From a virus (lineage: Duplodnaviria; Caudoviricetes): a stretch of DNA of 64,000 bases. The number at the start of each line of letters is the position of its first letter. The stretch's first letter is position 1. The notes under the pieces are model-generated. The model ran no database searches. It saw only the letters and a list, made by a program, of their open reading frames with translations, and had not been told where the DNA came from. The position numbers were made by a program, and so were the translations under genes. Below are positions 24,894-48,976 of the stretch, one piece after another. Location of the stretch: the IMG/VR virus record IMGVR_UViG_3300044712_000786, positions 96,001-160,000 of that record; one strand, given 5' to 3'.

Positions 24894-25077
24894 TCAGCGA
24901 GGGAGGACTCGAACCTCCAACCTCGTTCATGTAATGAACCCCTATTTACTGACTATCCTCGATTTTCTTACTAGTAGTGAAGGGTTGCAACCCCGCACTA
25001 TGTTCAAATTATCTACTTTTGTCAGCTTTTTCGGGAGGGTTACTAGCCCTGCGCTCTGCCAATTGAGCTACTCGCCG
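24894..25077 (-). ncRNA. tRNA-like RNA (Pro-type acceptor, AGT anticodon loop) with an approximately 110-nt structured insertion
   Basis: CGGCGAG/CTCGCTG acceptor, GCTC-AATTGGCA-GAGC D arm, AGGG-CTAGTAA-CCCT, GGAGG-TTCGAGT-CCTCC T arm; no encoded CCA. Confidence 0.7.
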
Positions 25078-25607
25078 ATATTTAAATTCTAAAATAAATT
25101 TTTCAAAAAGCAACCTAAAAATTCTCGTATGCAATTAGGTAATTCCCAAGAGTGACTCTGACTCCCTCAATCGAAAATTCAAAATTTAAATGTTCGGGAA
25201 AAGCACTCATTAATTCAACGTACTCATCTAAACTAGATGAATCTTCCCAACGGGCAAAGCGGCGAATAGAATTCATCTACCAAGAAGTCTTGCCACGAAT
25301 CTTATCTATAGCACCCAGCACCATCAAAGGAAAAAAGACGATGAACATTCCCACTTTAATACAAACCCACATAAAAAACTTGATAAGAGTATTCATATTT
25401 TGTCTACCTCTTTCAGTATCTCTAACGCTCGTTCATCCCCGCCGCTTCCTTCGCAAATCGCTTTAGCTAACCCATCGGGGATAGGATAGCCATGTTTTTC
25501 GAGAATACTTAACATATCTAAAGCTACTGTATGTCTACAAATAGAAGGAAAAGGAAAGTTAAGCATATTCCTTACCTCTTGAACCAAGTCATTCTTTATA
25601 TCTTCCA

Positions 25608-26081
25608 TTAGTAACTATCAGAGGAATATTGATACTCATCCCCGTTATCGTCCCCAATAGGATTGTCAAGTCCATACTTAACTGCGACTGCCTTGTATAG
25701 AGGGAGCCCGTATTGAGCATAATTCTCAAAATCTTGTAATTCATCGTCTAGCACCCACATCCACATCTTAATGACATCCCACATGAGGCTAGAAGAAATA
25801 CCCCTTTTATTAAGAGCTTTTTCGAAAGCAAAGCTCAAATCACCCTTAAGGCGTTTAATAACTTCTTCTTGAGTTAAAGGAACCGTTACGACAGTCTTAG
25901 GGTCTACTCCTTCTTTAAGGGTAAAGCCAAACTTAGACCAATCTTCTACAGGGATAAAGTCTATCAGGCGAGACAAGTCTCGATTGTCAATAAGGCTAGT
26001 AGTCTCCCCGCCTTTGTATTCGTATAGTTGTTCTAGCGTTTTCATCTTTCCTAAGTCTACCCGCTTTTTTTTCGCTTGCAA
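25608..26081 (-). CDS. Hypothetical protein
   Basis: 157 aa ORF in an operon-like run. Confidence 0.6.
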   Translation of the reverse strand: MQAKKKRVDLGKMKTLEQLYEYKGGETTSLIDNRDLSRLIDFIPVEDWSKFGFTLKEGVDPKTVVTVPLTQEEVIKRLKGDLSFAFEKALNKRGISSSLMWDVIKMWMWVLDDELQDFENYAQYGLPLYKAVAVKYGLDNPIGDDNGDEYQYSSDSY

Positions 26082-28203
26082 GAATTTTTTTTAATCTTAT
26101 TAAAATAAATCTCGTTCGCCCAATCTGAATCTTCCTTGTTGATTTCGAAGGGTTTAACAGGTTTTCGACGGCAAAGATACCAATACAATCTATCGGCTAA
26201 ATTTGTGCTCGGAACGCTGCTCCCCTGAATGATTACCCATGTCGGTACCCCCTGAGTATTAAGTAAAGCTTCTATCTTCTCTAAAGTGACCTTATTTAAG
26301 TTGACTTTGATTTCCTCTAGCCGCTTTTTAAGTTTATTCGTCTTTACCATAGAAGAGGTAAGTTGCTATTTCTTTGCCTAAATAACTAATAAATGTAATA
26401 ATACCCGAAATTACCGCGAGTGGCCAGCCGAATAGGTAAGTCAACGTATCTTCCCAGAACCTTTCCCTAAATAATCCTTTCGAATATTTATGAACGAATT
26501 TCAACTGAAACAAATTAAAGATAGCTACAAAACAACCAATCAAAAAATAAGCTATTACACACGAGAGGACAATAGCCCCCTCGCTAAGTTTGACTGTTTC
26601 AGCTTCGGCTAACATACGTCATGATTCCTTCAAACCCGCTTCTTCTATAAGCTGTTTTCGTTTCTCCTGATATAAAGCGTAAGCCATAGCCATATTAGTA
26701 ACTAGAGCTACTTCTCTACTAAATTCTCCTTGCCCAATTGCCAAAACTAACTTCCCGCAGCAGTAGTCGTTAAACTTGTTATAGTCATATTTTAAAAAAT
26801 CAGAGCCCCCACCAAAACCAACAAAATACATTAAGCTTAGCTCTTTTTCAATCCTCTGCTCGGCAATTAGTAAGTCTCTCTTGCTCATTTCTTTTTCTTC
26901 TTTTTGGGCTGGCGCAATTCAATCTGCTCGGCTAAAAAGACGCCTACCTGAATATAGTCATACGCCTGATTACTATACTCTTCAGCTTCCGCATCCATTC
27001 CTACTTGTTTAAAAGTGCGGCTAGCAAACTCGCTTTCCTTAGCACATAGCTCTAACTGGCGAGCAGCCCGTGTCATAGCGTTAATTGAAGGTATCATCGG
27101 CATCCTTGCACAATTTCCCAAGCCCTAGCCGCCCGACTTGCCTTGCGGCAGCTATTATCACGGAAGACCTTGCTAATAAGGTCAGTGTTAATCTTTTCGC
27201 CCTTTTTCAAAAGCTCCGCTTCGCTTTTTAGGGTCTCTTCTTTAAAAATTTTCTTCATATTTGAATTCTATTTTAAATTTTTCAAAAGTCAATAGTGTTA
27301 ATTAGCCTTTGAATAATAAACATCTCTGGACATAGCCTAGATACTCTGGAGAAACGGACTGTCCCCTTAACAAACTCCCAAAGAACCACATTGATTCCAT
27401 TTAACTGGGGGCAGTACATTGTTGGATGTTTATCTATAGCTCTCGTTAAACTTTTCATATTTCACTAATAACAACTTCTCCACCCTCCGCGTAGCTGAAA
27501 TAGCTTTCCTTTTTACCGAAATATTTGACTTTAGTTCGATAAGTACCCGATATTGAATCTAGATATCTCAGGGGAATATTTGTTTCTACTTCTCTGAATA
27601 ACCATGGATTATCACTGAAAAGAAACCCGCCCATTCTAGACATATGAGGATTCAGAGAATTCTTCAGTCGCTTCATTTAATAACTAATCTAAAGGTATCT
27701 TCCTTACGTTGTTTGGAAAGCTTCTCTAAGTATAACAAAGCCTGCTTCCTACCTTCTTTATTATGAGGAAAAGCCCCTTGAATGCGCGTTCCACTGTAAA
27801 TACAGTAAAATTTAACCTTTTTGGGCATTTTCAATCGTCTTGTTAAGATAATGAGCTTCCCATTTTGCTCCCAGCTTGCGAGTTAGCTCCGCTATTTTTC
27901 TGCTCTCAAAATCGTTCTTAGCTAATACCAGCTTCAGTTTCTTGCGCCCTTCTTCATCACTTAATTTCCCAGAATCAATTTCGTCAATAGTATTAGCTAA
28001 CTCATTCCACCAAAATTCCACGCTTTGAGCAACGATTTCTCCCTCTTTTTTTAATTTATTTAAATTCGGCTTCATGCAAAATCTGCATTAACTGCTTGAT
28101 ATGAAAGGTCATAGAACTTTCTGCGACCTGAATATTTCCCTCGAAAAGAGACTTATCTTGCTTATCCGTAAGTAAGGAAAGGACTAGCATGTCCTCCAAC
28201 AAA

Positions 28204-28611
28204 CTAATTGCTTGTTCTTTTTTGTTCTCGTTCATTTAATATTAATCCTATAATATAAGCATAGAGAGGGCTTATGCTTAAGTCGAGAATTTTATTCAAA
28301 TGGTCTGTCTCTAATTCGGATAAGGGGACATATTTAGTAGGTTGGTCTCCTTTAGGGCCACTCGTTCCCCAAAGCAATTTCTCCTTGATAGTGTTTATGC
28401 TATCATTACGAGTTAAGCAAAAGTCCGCAACAATCGCTTTAGTATTCTTTCCCTTGGTTCCGCCTCGCCTACAGTAGTCATTTCCACCGTCAACAAACAC
28501 GAAACTACCATCAGCAAAAGTATACTGGTTAAAATGATGTCTACTAACGGAAGCTACATAAGTAGTTTTTCCTTTTTCTATAACTTTAATGGCGTTTTGA
28601 ATCAGGTCCAT
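28204..28611 (-). CDS. Conserved hypothetical phage protein
   Basis: SVSRHHF...VDGGNDYCRRGG motif and LLWGTSG. Confidence 0.6.
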   Translation of the reverse strand: MDLIQNAIKVIEKGKTTYVASVSRHHFNQYTFADGSFVFVDGGNDYCRRGGTKGKNTKAIVADFCLTRNDSINTIKEKLLWGTSGPKGDQPTKYVPLSELETDHLNKILDLSISPLYAYIIGLILNEREQKRTSN

Positions 28612-48176: not shown

Positions 48177-48252
48177 TGGAGGCTCAGGTTGGAATTTCAC
48201 CAACGTCAGTCAAGTTAACGGCTTGATGCTCGAATGTCTGAGCTACTGAGCC
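48177..48252 (-). tRNA. tRNA-Asn(GTT), second copy, C33/U73
   Basis: GGCTCAG/CTGAGCC-T-CCA; TCAAG-CCGTTAA-CTTGA; T loop TGAAATT. Confidence 0.75.
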
Positions 48253-48760
48253 AATATTAAATCTCGAATCCATCTTAAATGGACTACTTGGCTTTCAAGA
48301 TTTTTAAAAGCAATTACTACATCACGAGAAGTTAAATAATTCATCGGATGATAACAAAAATCATCCCTCACGCGCACTACCTGATATAGGTGTTTCATAA
48401 TTGTTCCCAATATAGTTCTTTGGGGTCCTTGGTCAATTCCATAATCCTCTCTAGGATTTCCTCCCTTGTCTTTCGTCTAGCTCGCCCCTTTTTGACCCCG
48501 TCCTTGGAGTTACTACAAATAGGGCACTTATCAGAATTATGCCGCTTGTTTTGATGTTTAGGGGGTTTACCGTAGGGTTTCATACAGAAGCCTCTGCCCC
48601 CACTAGAGCCAAAGCTAAGCTTCCCACGGGCTCCCCAGCTTGCTTAATAACTCTTCTTAGATGGTCCGCTACCTCTTTACATGCTTCCTGCTCAGCGGCA
48701 GAAAGCTGAGAAATAAGACCTTTAATAATTAAAACAGTTTCTTGTTCACTTGTCATAAAA

Positions 48761-48836
48761 TGGTAGGCATGGCAGAAATTGCATCTGCATAAAACAATTT
48801 CGAAGATTGGTGCCTAATCTATTCGGCCACATGCCC
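48761..48836 (-). tRNA. tRNA-Arg(TCG)
   Basis: GGGCATG/CATGCCT-A-CCA; CT-TCG-AA; T loop TGCAATT. Confidence 0.85.
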
Positions 48837-48852
48837 ATAAAATTTAAAACGG

Positions 48853-48976
48853 GGATTTCACTAATGTTCCATTAAAAAGTGTGCTGCCAATTACACTACC
48901 GGGGCATAAGCGCCCCAGAGAGGACTCGAACCTCTACTTCCTTCATCATGTCTATCCCTATGGAGGATTTCACTAA
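48853..48976 (-). ncRNA. Circularly permuted tRNA-like RNA (T arm, loop-closed acceptor stem, D arm); Y-RNA/YrlA-like topology
   Basis: AGAGG-TTCGAGT-CCTCT, CTGGGGC-GCTTAT-GCCCCGG, GTGT-AATTGGCA-GCAC; flanked by the 12-bp direct repeat TTAGTGAAATCC. Confidence 0.7.

Follow-up and report, generated by a model that had tools for sequence, protein, structure and literature searches.

Why should a phage whose decoding tRNAs carry an altered elbow keep the usual elbow mainly in RNAs that do not look like ordinary tRNAs? The question is raised by a stretch of 64,000 nucleotides (the window), bases 96001-160000 of the virus record IMGVR_UViG_3300044712_000786, a 202,704-bp genome with direct terminal repeats and ~40% G+C, which encodes a large tRNA array together with four odd tRNA-like RNAs, here called RNAs 1 to 4. 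Every gene and RNA treated here lies on the minus strand. By canonical elbow we mean a D-loop with GG together with a T-loop TTCRA. The initial annotation of the window noted that this elbow belongs mostly to the odd RNAs, and proposed a division of labour in which tRNAs with G at position 55 (G55 tRNAs) translate while the odd RNAs are non-decoding decoys. We confirm the partition and find it again in a relative. The reading we favour, at a probability of about 0.5, is that the canonical-elbow RNAs are tRNA mimics of the Y-RNA kind, in which a lineage with rewired tRNAs has kept the host-type elbow outside its ordinary decoders.

Two elbow types in one genome

ARAGORN called 16 tRNAs and Rfam a few more; with a stem scan (T-arm, acceptor closure and CCA), a cloverleaf parse and an ARAGORN run at thresholds lowered to 85%, the count of ordinary tRNAs rose to about 34. 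About 32 of these have G at position 55 by the stem scan and parse. Their T-loops read TGCAA.., AGCGTTA, GGCAG.A, CGCAAAC, TGGAAAT, TGAAATT or TGTAAGT, the D-loop usually has TAG in place of GG, and CCA is encoded in nearly all. The RNAs compared are as follows.

24894-25077, minus: RNA 1, a full canonical cloverleaf with a 111-nt structured insertion (folding, ARAGORN)
34178-34271, minus: RNA 2, an arm-swapped tRNA-like RNA (folding, Rfam tRNA)
46579-46730, minus: RNA 3, a tRNA-like RNA without anticodon arm or CCA, tail ATTG (folding, ARAGORN)
48850-48960, minus: RNA 4, a putative circularly permuted tRNA mimic in closing stem GGGAU/AUCCC (folding, RF02553)
36837-54963, minus: array of ~32 G55 tRNAs, the contrast class (stem scan, cloverleaf parse, ARAGORN, Rfam)
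39432-39506, minus: tRNA-CAT, T-loop TTCGAGT, D-loop GG, CCA encoded, D-arm irregular (ARAGORN only at 85% thresholds)

All four flagged RNAs lie on the minus strand where the initial annotation had placed them, with D-loop GG and TTCRA. As it also reported, three lack an encoded CCA (RNAs 1, 3 and 4), RNA 2 ending in GCCA. It had named tRNA-CAT as the only ordinary exception; tRNA-CAT is indeed canonical (with no Rfam listing at E <= 10), but so is tRNA-Leu(TAA), an ordinary class II tRNA outside the window (genome 85127-85215), and these two complete the canonical set. RNAs 1 to 4 all retain U8, A14, A15/U48 and U54/A58, and none of the four has lost any of the seven canonical tertiary-pair positions. 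The ratio of canonical to G55 elbows was 4/1 among aberrant RNAs and 2/32 among ordinary tRNAs (Fisher exact p = 8.7e-4), the class of aberrant RNAs having been defined post hoc, after the data were seen. The partition is thus strong; it is not absolute, because one aberrant RNA of 153 nt, considered below, has a G55-type loop.

Judging from the loops, the elbow change appears to be located at positions 18 and 55, and the outer pair G19:C56 is probably retained in most G55 tRNAs (D-loop TAG, T-loop.GC). That pair is the elbow face on which RNase P, the L1 stalk and T-boxes stack (PMC4810234, PMC3664808), so these readers may not separate the two classes. Readers that do discriminate are more likely to be ones needing U54, U55 or G18. 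We take the G55 elbow of the decoders as the derived state; the mimics would keep the ancestral, host-type elbow.

A six-frame Pfam search found no CCA-adding enzyme, RtcB, RNA ligase, Thg1 or tRNA splicing endonuclease in the phage. Splicing by a phage enzyme is therefore unsupported, and the CCA-less RNAs would depend on host enzymes. We also observe that encoded CCA in nearly all G55 tRNAs, with no CCA-adding enzyme found by Pfam, would fit their being a poor substrate for the host enzyme.

The same partition in a relative

The closest homologue of a DUF2828 protein of the window (described below) is carried by a 22-kb Logan contig, L183 (52% identity by BLASTP, 51% by tblastn). L183 has at least 11 G55-type tRNAs with TAG in their D-loops and CCA present; their T-loops read CGCGATA, GGCAGCA, AGCGTTA, TGCGAGC, TGCGATA and TGCAATT, and one is 79% identical to the window tRNA-Gly(GCC). 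Only three canonical T-loops occur in the contig, all in permuted or anticodon-less RNAs.

L183, ~17020-17150: permuted module (T-arm, acceptor hairpin, D-arm) closed by the 7-bp stem TAGATGC/GCATCTA, with TA-ACTGCAA after the 5' strand
L183, ~12640-12760: second permuted module, its acceptor loop beginning ACCA directly after the 3' strand
L183, 16946-17012: anticodon-less tRNA-like RNA

Canonical to G55 counts here are 3/0 for aberrant RNAs and 0/11 for ordinary tRNAs (p = 2.7e-3). Given the same split in L183, the partition is a property of the lineage and no accident of one genome. At least since this phage and L183 diverged, the mimics would have kept the host-type elbow. In the second permuted module, cleavage at ACCA would leave an authentic tRNA 3' end.

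RNA 4 and a second family of handles

RNA 4 is laid out as a T-arm (AGAGG-TTCGAGT-CCTCT), a 7-bp acceptor hairpin (CTGGGGC-GCTTAT-GCCCCGG), UA, and a D-arm (GTGT-AATTGGCA-GCAC). This is the YrlA architecture, in which a terminal stem encloses first a T stem-loop, then an acceptor-like one and last a D stem-loop. The whole Rfam YrlA model (RF02553) aligned to it, at 22.1 bits against a gathering cut-off of 69 (E = 0.015 in a 261-nt search); the Rfam tRNA model (RF00005) gave 14.2 bits against a cut-off of 29. From this anatomy RNA 4 reads as a non-decoding tRNA mimic of the YrlA kind.

The handle of RNA 4, GGGAUAGAC ... UUAGUGAAAUCCC, occurs three times in the window and, with one copy in L183, defines a second handle family beside the ACAGCAA handles described below. 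Its consensus is G(G/A)GAUAGA(C/U) ... AGUGAAAUCC(U/C)C.

48962-49045, minus: sibling RNA of RNA 4, handle GGAGAUAGA ... UUAGUGAAAUCCUCC, with a Val-UAC hairpin in the insert
54975-55040, minus: third handle copy, GAGAUAGAC ... GAGUGAAAUCCUC, 85% identical to L183:17540-17624

Between the third copy and its L183 counterpart, one U:A pair of the insert is changed to A:U, a compensatory change. The closing stem of this family possibly has a bulged C. In the sibling, just upstream of RNA 4, the hairpin CUCGC-CUUACAA-GCGAG (48985-49010) is a perfect copy of the Val-UAC anticodon arm.

Permuted modules in other phages

In a pattern scan of viral contigs, many T-loops lay too close to the D-loop after them for the two to belong to separate genes, and 13 records had a clean closed acceptor hairpin. 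When 14 permuted modules were aligned, including that of the window and both of L183, the T stem and acceptor hairpin covaried fully, with compensatory changes in 10 of the 15 predicted pairs; in 11 of the 14 the conservation of the loops is a consequence of the search pattern itself. TROVE (6) or DUF2828 (2) was encoded in 8 of the 13 module records and in 6 of 36 controls (pattern matches without the hairpin; p = 0.004), one of these controls, L084, being actually permuted, with a 5-bp hairpin and TROVE. DUF2828 alone shows no enrichment in module records (2/13 versus 2/36); the enrichment appears only when TROVE is added. This association of permuted modules with Ro60-family genes agrees with the published link between YrlA and Ro60 and with work on phage phiLo (PMC12135203).

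A Ro60-like protein and its candidate RNAs

57877-59352, minus: DUF2828 + DUF7788 protein of 491 amino acids with a predicted Ro60 fold, a HEAT-repeat ring plus vWA (Pfam, AlphaFold, Foldseek)
47025-47268, minus: four tandem small RNAs, each a stem with an ACAGCAA handle
59363-59423, minus: fifth such RNA, directly upstream of the Ro60-like gene

The DUF2828 protein has thousands of homologues. Its AlphaFold model, built on 24 sequences, has a predicted local distance difference test score of 83, and the top 12 matches of the model in a Foldseek search of the PDB were all Ro60 (E down to 5e-7, template modelling scores 0.5-0.55, ~500 aligned columns), among them the Ro60 proteins of Thermus phage phiLo, Xenopus and human, and Deinococcus Rsr. 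A sequence-profile search of the PDB with the DUF2828 alignment did not return Ro60, and Pfam TROVE has no match in the genome.

By stem plus ACAGCAA handle we mean a closing stem of 6-9 bp followed by (UA)ACAGCAA. In the window and in L182, L184, L185 and L186, an RNA of this kind immediately precedes the DUF2828 gene; we found no paper on such RNAs. L001, an unrelated phage with canonical tRNAs, has tRNA-like RNAs after its DUF2828 gene (11497-11610 and 11861-11981) in which a hairpin with ACAGCAA/TCAGCAA words replaces the anticodon loop. From the predicted fold and this gene order, the DUF2828 protein is a likely partner of the handle RNAs. RNA ligase, Thg1-like, RlaP and PolyA_pol genes adjoin the DUF2828 genes of large phages (L182-L186 and the P0008 contig), and their position points to tRNA end repair as a possible context of the Ro60-like system.

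RNAs 1 to 3

RNA 1 has acceptor stem CGGCGAG/CTCGCTG, D-loop AATTGGCA, T-loop TTCGAGT, tail AGTC and an intact anticodon loop CTAGTAA (AGU, Thr). Its insertion lies between anticodon-stem positions 42 and 43 and folds as a long arm plus a hairpin; the minimum free energy of the RNA is -61.1 kcal/mol (z = -3.1), a value reached by 0 of 200 shuffles. Taking out the 111 nt leaves the stem CAGGG/CCCUG, and ARAGORN then calls tRNA-Thr(AGU). The removal gains one base pair only, so RNA 1 is equally readable as a tRNA with a giant variable region. The Rfam tRNA model makes two partial matches, of 18.3 and 15.5 bits (cut-off 29). A promoter-like TTGCTT-N17-TAGAAT just upstream was seen by eye only and is absent from the promoter-scan list.

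The arms of RNA 2 are rearranged. Acceptor strand GCAAACG is followed by UA, an anticodon-like hairpin (6-bp stem CAAAGT/ACTTTG, loop TTCCTAA = CCU), a second UA, a D-like arm (CGT-AATTGGATA-ACG, loop AATTGGATA), CTAAT, a T-arm (GTGGG-TTCAAAT-CCCTC), the acceptor 3' strand, G73 and CCA, the tail reading GCCA. UA thus occurs twice, behind the acceptor strand and ahead of the D-like arm. RNA 2 scores 29.1 bits with the Rfam tRNA model, just above the cut-off of 29, in an alignment that counts the D-like arm as an insertion. It carries A20, C35, U36 and G73, which form the identity set of Escherichia coli arginyl-tRNA synthetase, and the cloverleaf parse found no G55 tRNA with anticodon CCU in the array. 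The pattern AATTGG-N8-22-GGTTCRANTCC, used to look for arm-swapped or anticodon-less RNAs, returned mostly ordinary tRNAs and none like RNA 2. A dual-specificity-phosphatase-like gene (34273-34716, minus) ends 1 nt before RNA 2.

RNA 3 combines acceptor stem GAGCACA/TGTGTTC (G3:U70, A73), D-arm TTGT-AATGGTA-GCAA, T-arm AGCGG-TTCAAAC-CCGCT and a class-II-like extra arm, ACGGCT-AATA-AGTCGT; some 60-95 nt, forming a long irregular hairpin, replace the anticodon arm. The Rfam tRNA model gives 13.9 bits (cut-off 29). ARAGORN in intron mode removes 60 nt and calls Phe(GAA), with loop UUGAAAA on a weak stem; this call is at odds with alanine identity and is likely a search artefact. G3:U70 is the identity element of alanyl-tRNA synthetase, used also in the tRNA-like domain of transfer-messenger RNA (tmRNA) and in alanine minihelices. 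By these elements RNA 3 is probably an alanine-identity mimic without an anticodon.

Two other identities were considered and rejected. RNA 3 is not taken as a tmRNA: no tag reading frame or pseudoknots were recognised, and ARAGORN -m (genome) and Rfam gave no tmRNA match. Nor do we take the insertions of RNAs 1 and 3 as group I or II introns. Self-splicing introns of these groups in tRNA genes have a ribozyme core of ~200 nt or more and sit in the anticodon loop; 111 and 60 nt are too short, and Rfam returned no intron or ribozyme match.

Setting and other elements

The phage DNA is present in four rhizosphere metagenome runs. Its sequence is identical in all four and so offers no variation for covariation analysis; the runs carrying it are DNA runs only, with no RNA run listed. 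Megablast of 7 kb of the window against a phage collection gave no match. The ParB-like gene led to no related loci, its sole homologue in a large protein collection being itself. Terminase relatives (~55% identity, 54 loci) were found, none of which reaches a tRNA array; five large contigs among them hold two canonical tRNAs only. The exact D-arm word CGAATAGATTAGGCAC had 0 matches in viral contigs. When RNAs 1 to 4 were compared by BLAST with every locus fetched, only D-arm and T-arm words matched, and no homologues of RNAs 1 to 3 were detected in those loci.

The tRNA array also contains HNH and PD-(D/E)XK endonuclease genes; a PD-(D/E)XK_5 gene (49736-50176, minus) lies inside it near RNA 4. 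Just upstream of tRNA-Leu(TAA) is a 184-nt stretch (genome 85222-85405; L005:5222-5405, minus) with 7-bp closure GCGCGAT/ATCGCGC, a canonical T-arm GGTGG-TTCGAAT-CCGCC and, near the 5' end, the tmRNA-like word UUCGACGG; it stands within a non-coding region of ~480 nt, after a promoter-like site. Neither Rfam nor ARAGORN calls this stretch, and its fold does not surpass that of shuffles (z = 0). A third canonical T-arm-like hairpin, at genome 85980, is inside a coding frame and was taken as chance.

Weighing the explanations

In the reading we favour, the decoding tRNAs of the lineage would have been rewired to T-loop G55 and D-loop TAG instead of GG, while the mimics would present a host-type body (U8, A14, A15/U48, G18G19, U54-U55-C56, A58) for proteins of normal tRNAs to bind or modify. 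RNA 4 would act in two steps, like YrlA: its closing stem and handle would bind a Ro60-like ring, either the DUF2828 protein or a second partner, and its permuted tRNA body would then recruit an exonuclease or enzymes that read tRNA. In function, RNAs 1 to 3 are probably related to RNA 4, although RNAs 1 and 2 may still be charged. On this account, being read as host-type tRNA is probably a requirement for the canonical-elbow RNAs. We infer that they are expressed and bound, and that selection, not mere lack of pressure, keeps their elbow. What is new is that the partition and its exceptions have been quantified, that it recurs in L183, that a second handle is shared, that permuted modules are associated with Ro60-family genes, and that RNA 2 carries the identity elements described above.

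Several findings weigh against this reading. One is a counter-example to the partition itself.

44903-45059, minus: 153-nt RNA with a 7-bp acceptor stem, T-loop TGCAAAG (G55-type), CCA and a long insertion (stem scan and parse)

A few G55 tRNAs, moreover, keep D-loop GG (41710, 49591 and 53152). RNA 4 is missing the YrlA 5' motif GNCGAAN0-1G, its 5' side reading AUAGGGAUAGACAUG with no CGAA; its handle (GGGAUAGAC ... UUAGUGAAAUCCC) matches no known partner; and RNAs 1 to 4 all lack the ACAGCAA word (searched as CAGCAA). A distance of 9 kb separates RNA 4 from the Ro60-like gene, which lies upstream on the same strand. For each of RNAs 1 to 3 the structure was derived from one sequence. RNAs 1 and 2 hold intact 7-nt anticodon loops and could still decode or be charged, and RNA 2 may, by its identity elements, be a working but rearranged tRNA-Arg. 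RNA 1 without its 111 nt and RNA 3 without 60 nt are called as tRNAs by ARAGORN at default thresholds. Finally, the canonical elbow could persist simply as no selection for G55 acts outside translation, or the canonical modules could be recent arrivals from other phages. In the 153-nt RNA the anticodon loop, UUAGCUG, is doubtful; this RNA could be the tRNA-Ala of the lineage or another mimic.

Some of these points lead to another proposal, in which RNAs 1 to 3 would be genuine tRNAs (Thr-AGU, Arg-CCU and Ala- or Phe-like), with their insertions kept or removed, and would form a host-type subset with tRNA-CAT and tRNA-Leu(TAA). The ARAGORN intron-mode calls of RNA 1 as Thr(AGU) and RNA 3 as Phe(GAA) speak for it, as do the 29.1 bits of RNA 2, its arginine elements and CCA, and the lack of a G55 CCT tRNA in the array. 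We consider it unlikely. The insertions are below group I/II intron size and match no intron or ribozyme in Rfam; splicing endonuclease, RtcB and RNA ligase were not found in the phage by Pfam; the restored stem of RNA 1 gains one pair only; and RNA 3, besides its weak stem (AAGAC/GUUUU), mixes G3:U70 and A73 (Ala) with a Phe anticodon and a class II extra arm. Phe-GAA, Thr-UGU, Leu-UAA and Met-CAU are already in the G55 set, and RNA 4 cannot be a tRNA. The decoy proposal of the initial annotation, in which the canonical-elbow RNAs soak up a host-elbow reader (a defence nuclease, or a modifying or processing enzyme) while the G55 decoders escape, gains from the partition and its recurrence in L183, and a phage with a full set of CCA-encoding G55 tRNAs seems not to depend on how its host handles tRNA. 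That tRNA enzymes act on such mimics is shown by YrlA, which TruB and DusA bind and modify, and by Mycobacterium smegmatis YrlA, which is cut by RNase P (PMC4201824). Decoying nonetheless seems rather unlikely to us, as a nuclease reading positions 18 and 55 is neither identified in the phage nor known from the host, RNase P, L1 and T-boxes may not discriminate if most G55 tRNAs keep G19:C56, as they seem to, and single-copy genes make weak stoichiometric sponges. It is a possible special case of the need to be read as host tRNA, and tethering or gating of a Ro60-type protein by a Y RNA is the better documented analogue.

The partition might also be a historical accident, the canonical RNAs being recent imports or neutral leftovers of mobile RNA modules and the split having no function. 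Canonical-elbow tRNA-like handle RNAs are present in unrelated phages, no homologues of RNAs 1 to 3 could be detected among the fetched loci, and HNH and PD-(D/E)XK genes stand in the array. We hold this to be very doubtful, since L183, with proteins only ~50% identical, has the same split, which has thus lasted through much divergence, and since the seven tertiary-pair positions are intact in all four RNAs. A further and quite speculative proposal, which we rate as improbable, is that there are two tRNA 'dialects': the G55 set would escape an agent specific for positions 18 and 55, whether a host defence or a phage weapon, and the mimics would be baits, sensors or guides for the same agent in a Ro60-like RNA surveillance particle. 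In that case the type of elbow would mark self versus non-self in the conflict of phage and host.

Returning to the Y-RNA-like mimics that we favour, the division of labour of the initial annotation survives in part. The canonical elbow is concentrated, in L183 too, in RNAs unfit as ordinary decoders; set against that are the Thr-AGU loop of RNA 1, Arg-CCU and CCA in RNA 2, two canonical ordinary tRNAs and one G55 aberrant RNA. Likewise, its description of the odd RNAs as non-decoding suits RNA 4 as a YrlA-type mimic, whereas RNAs 1 and 2, with their intact anticodon loops, may still decode.

Few nucleotides in biology are as conserved as U55 and G18. That this lineage changed them in its working tRNAs and not in their look-alikes amounts to a natural separation-of-function experiment, suggesting that translation tolerates the elbow change, whereas the job of the mimics requires a host-type elbow. 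It bears on two questions, the role of tRNA-like Y RNAs and the proteins that read the inner layer of the elbow, and it names four RNAs and one Ro60-like protein as substrates for study of how phages manipulate host tRNA metabolism.

Comparison with known systems

Rearranged and interrupted tRNA genes known elsewhere include bacterial group I introns in anticodon loops, archaeal bulge-helix-bulge introns and the permuted tRNA genes of red algae. As in permuted tRNA genes, the 3' half of RNA 4 precedes its 5' half; unlike them, RNA 4 is without any anticodon arm. RNAs 1 and 3 resemble intron-bearing tRNA genes in that tRNA-like sequences are left once the insertions are taken out, but these insertions, of 111 and 60 nt, have no ribozyme signature, and no splicing enzymes are encoded. 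RNA 3 shares G3:U70, A73, a canonical T-arm and the lack of a usable anticodon with the tRNA-like domain of tmRNA and with alanine minihelices, and differs in having a full D-stem, a length of only 152 nt and no CCA. The stem plus ACAGCAA handle RNAs of DUF2828 phages come closer, as a permuted mimic of L183 lies inside such a handle (TA-ACTGCAA) and the phage has five such RNAs; the four flagged RNAs are without ACAGCAA, and RNA 4 has the other handle.

The closest comparison is with YrlA-type Y RNAs. YrlA RNAs adjoin Ro60 genes in >250 bacteria and phages (Chen et al. 2014, PMC4201824); they are bound and modified by TruB and DusA, their GNCGAAN0-1G motif is thought to contact Rsr, and the M. 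smegmatis YrlA, with a 7-bp acceptor stem, undergoes RNase P cleavage and CCA addition (PMC4201824). In Thermus phage phiLo, Ro60 and the Y-like RNAs Yrl1/Yrl2 bind the host polynucleotide phosphorylase (PMC12135203), and more generally a Y RNA tethers or gates the Ro60-type protein (PMC4201824, PMC12135203). RNA 4 differs from these RNAs in scoring 22 bits against 69, without GNCGAAN0-1G or CGAA, and in having as candidate partner a DUF2828 protein without a Pfam TROVE match whose gene is 9 kb off. It resembles them in its canonical tertiary-pair nucleotides, in a 7-bp acceptor stem like that of M. smegmatis YrlA, in a sibling that shares its handle, a pairing like that of YrlA and YrlB, and in a genome coding for a protein of predicted Ro60 fold. 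What sets RNA 4 apart from YrlA-type Y RNAs is that it occurs in a phage whose own tRNAs carry another elbow.

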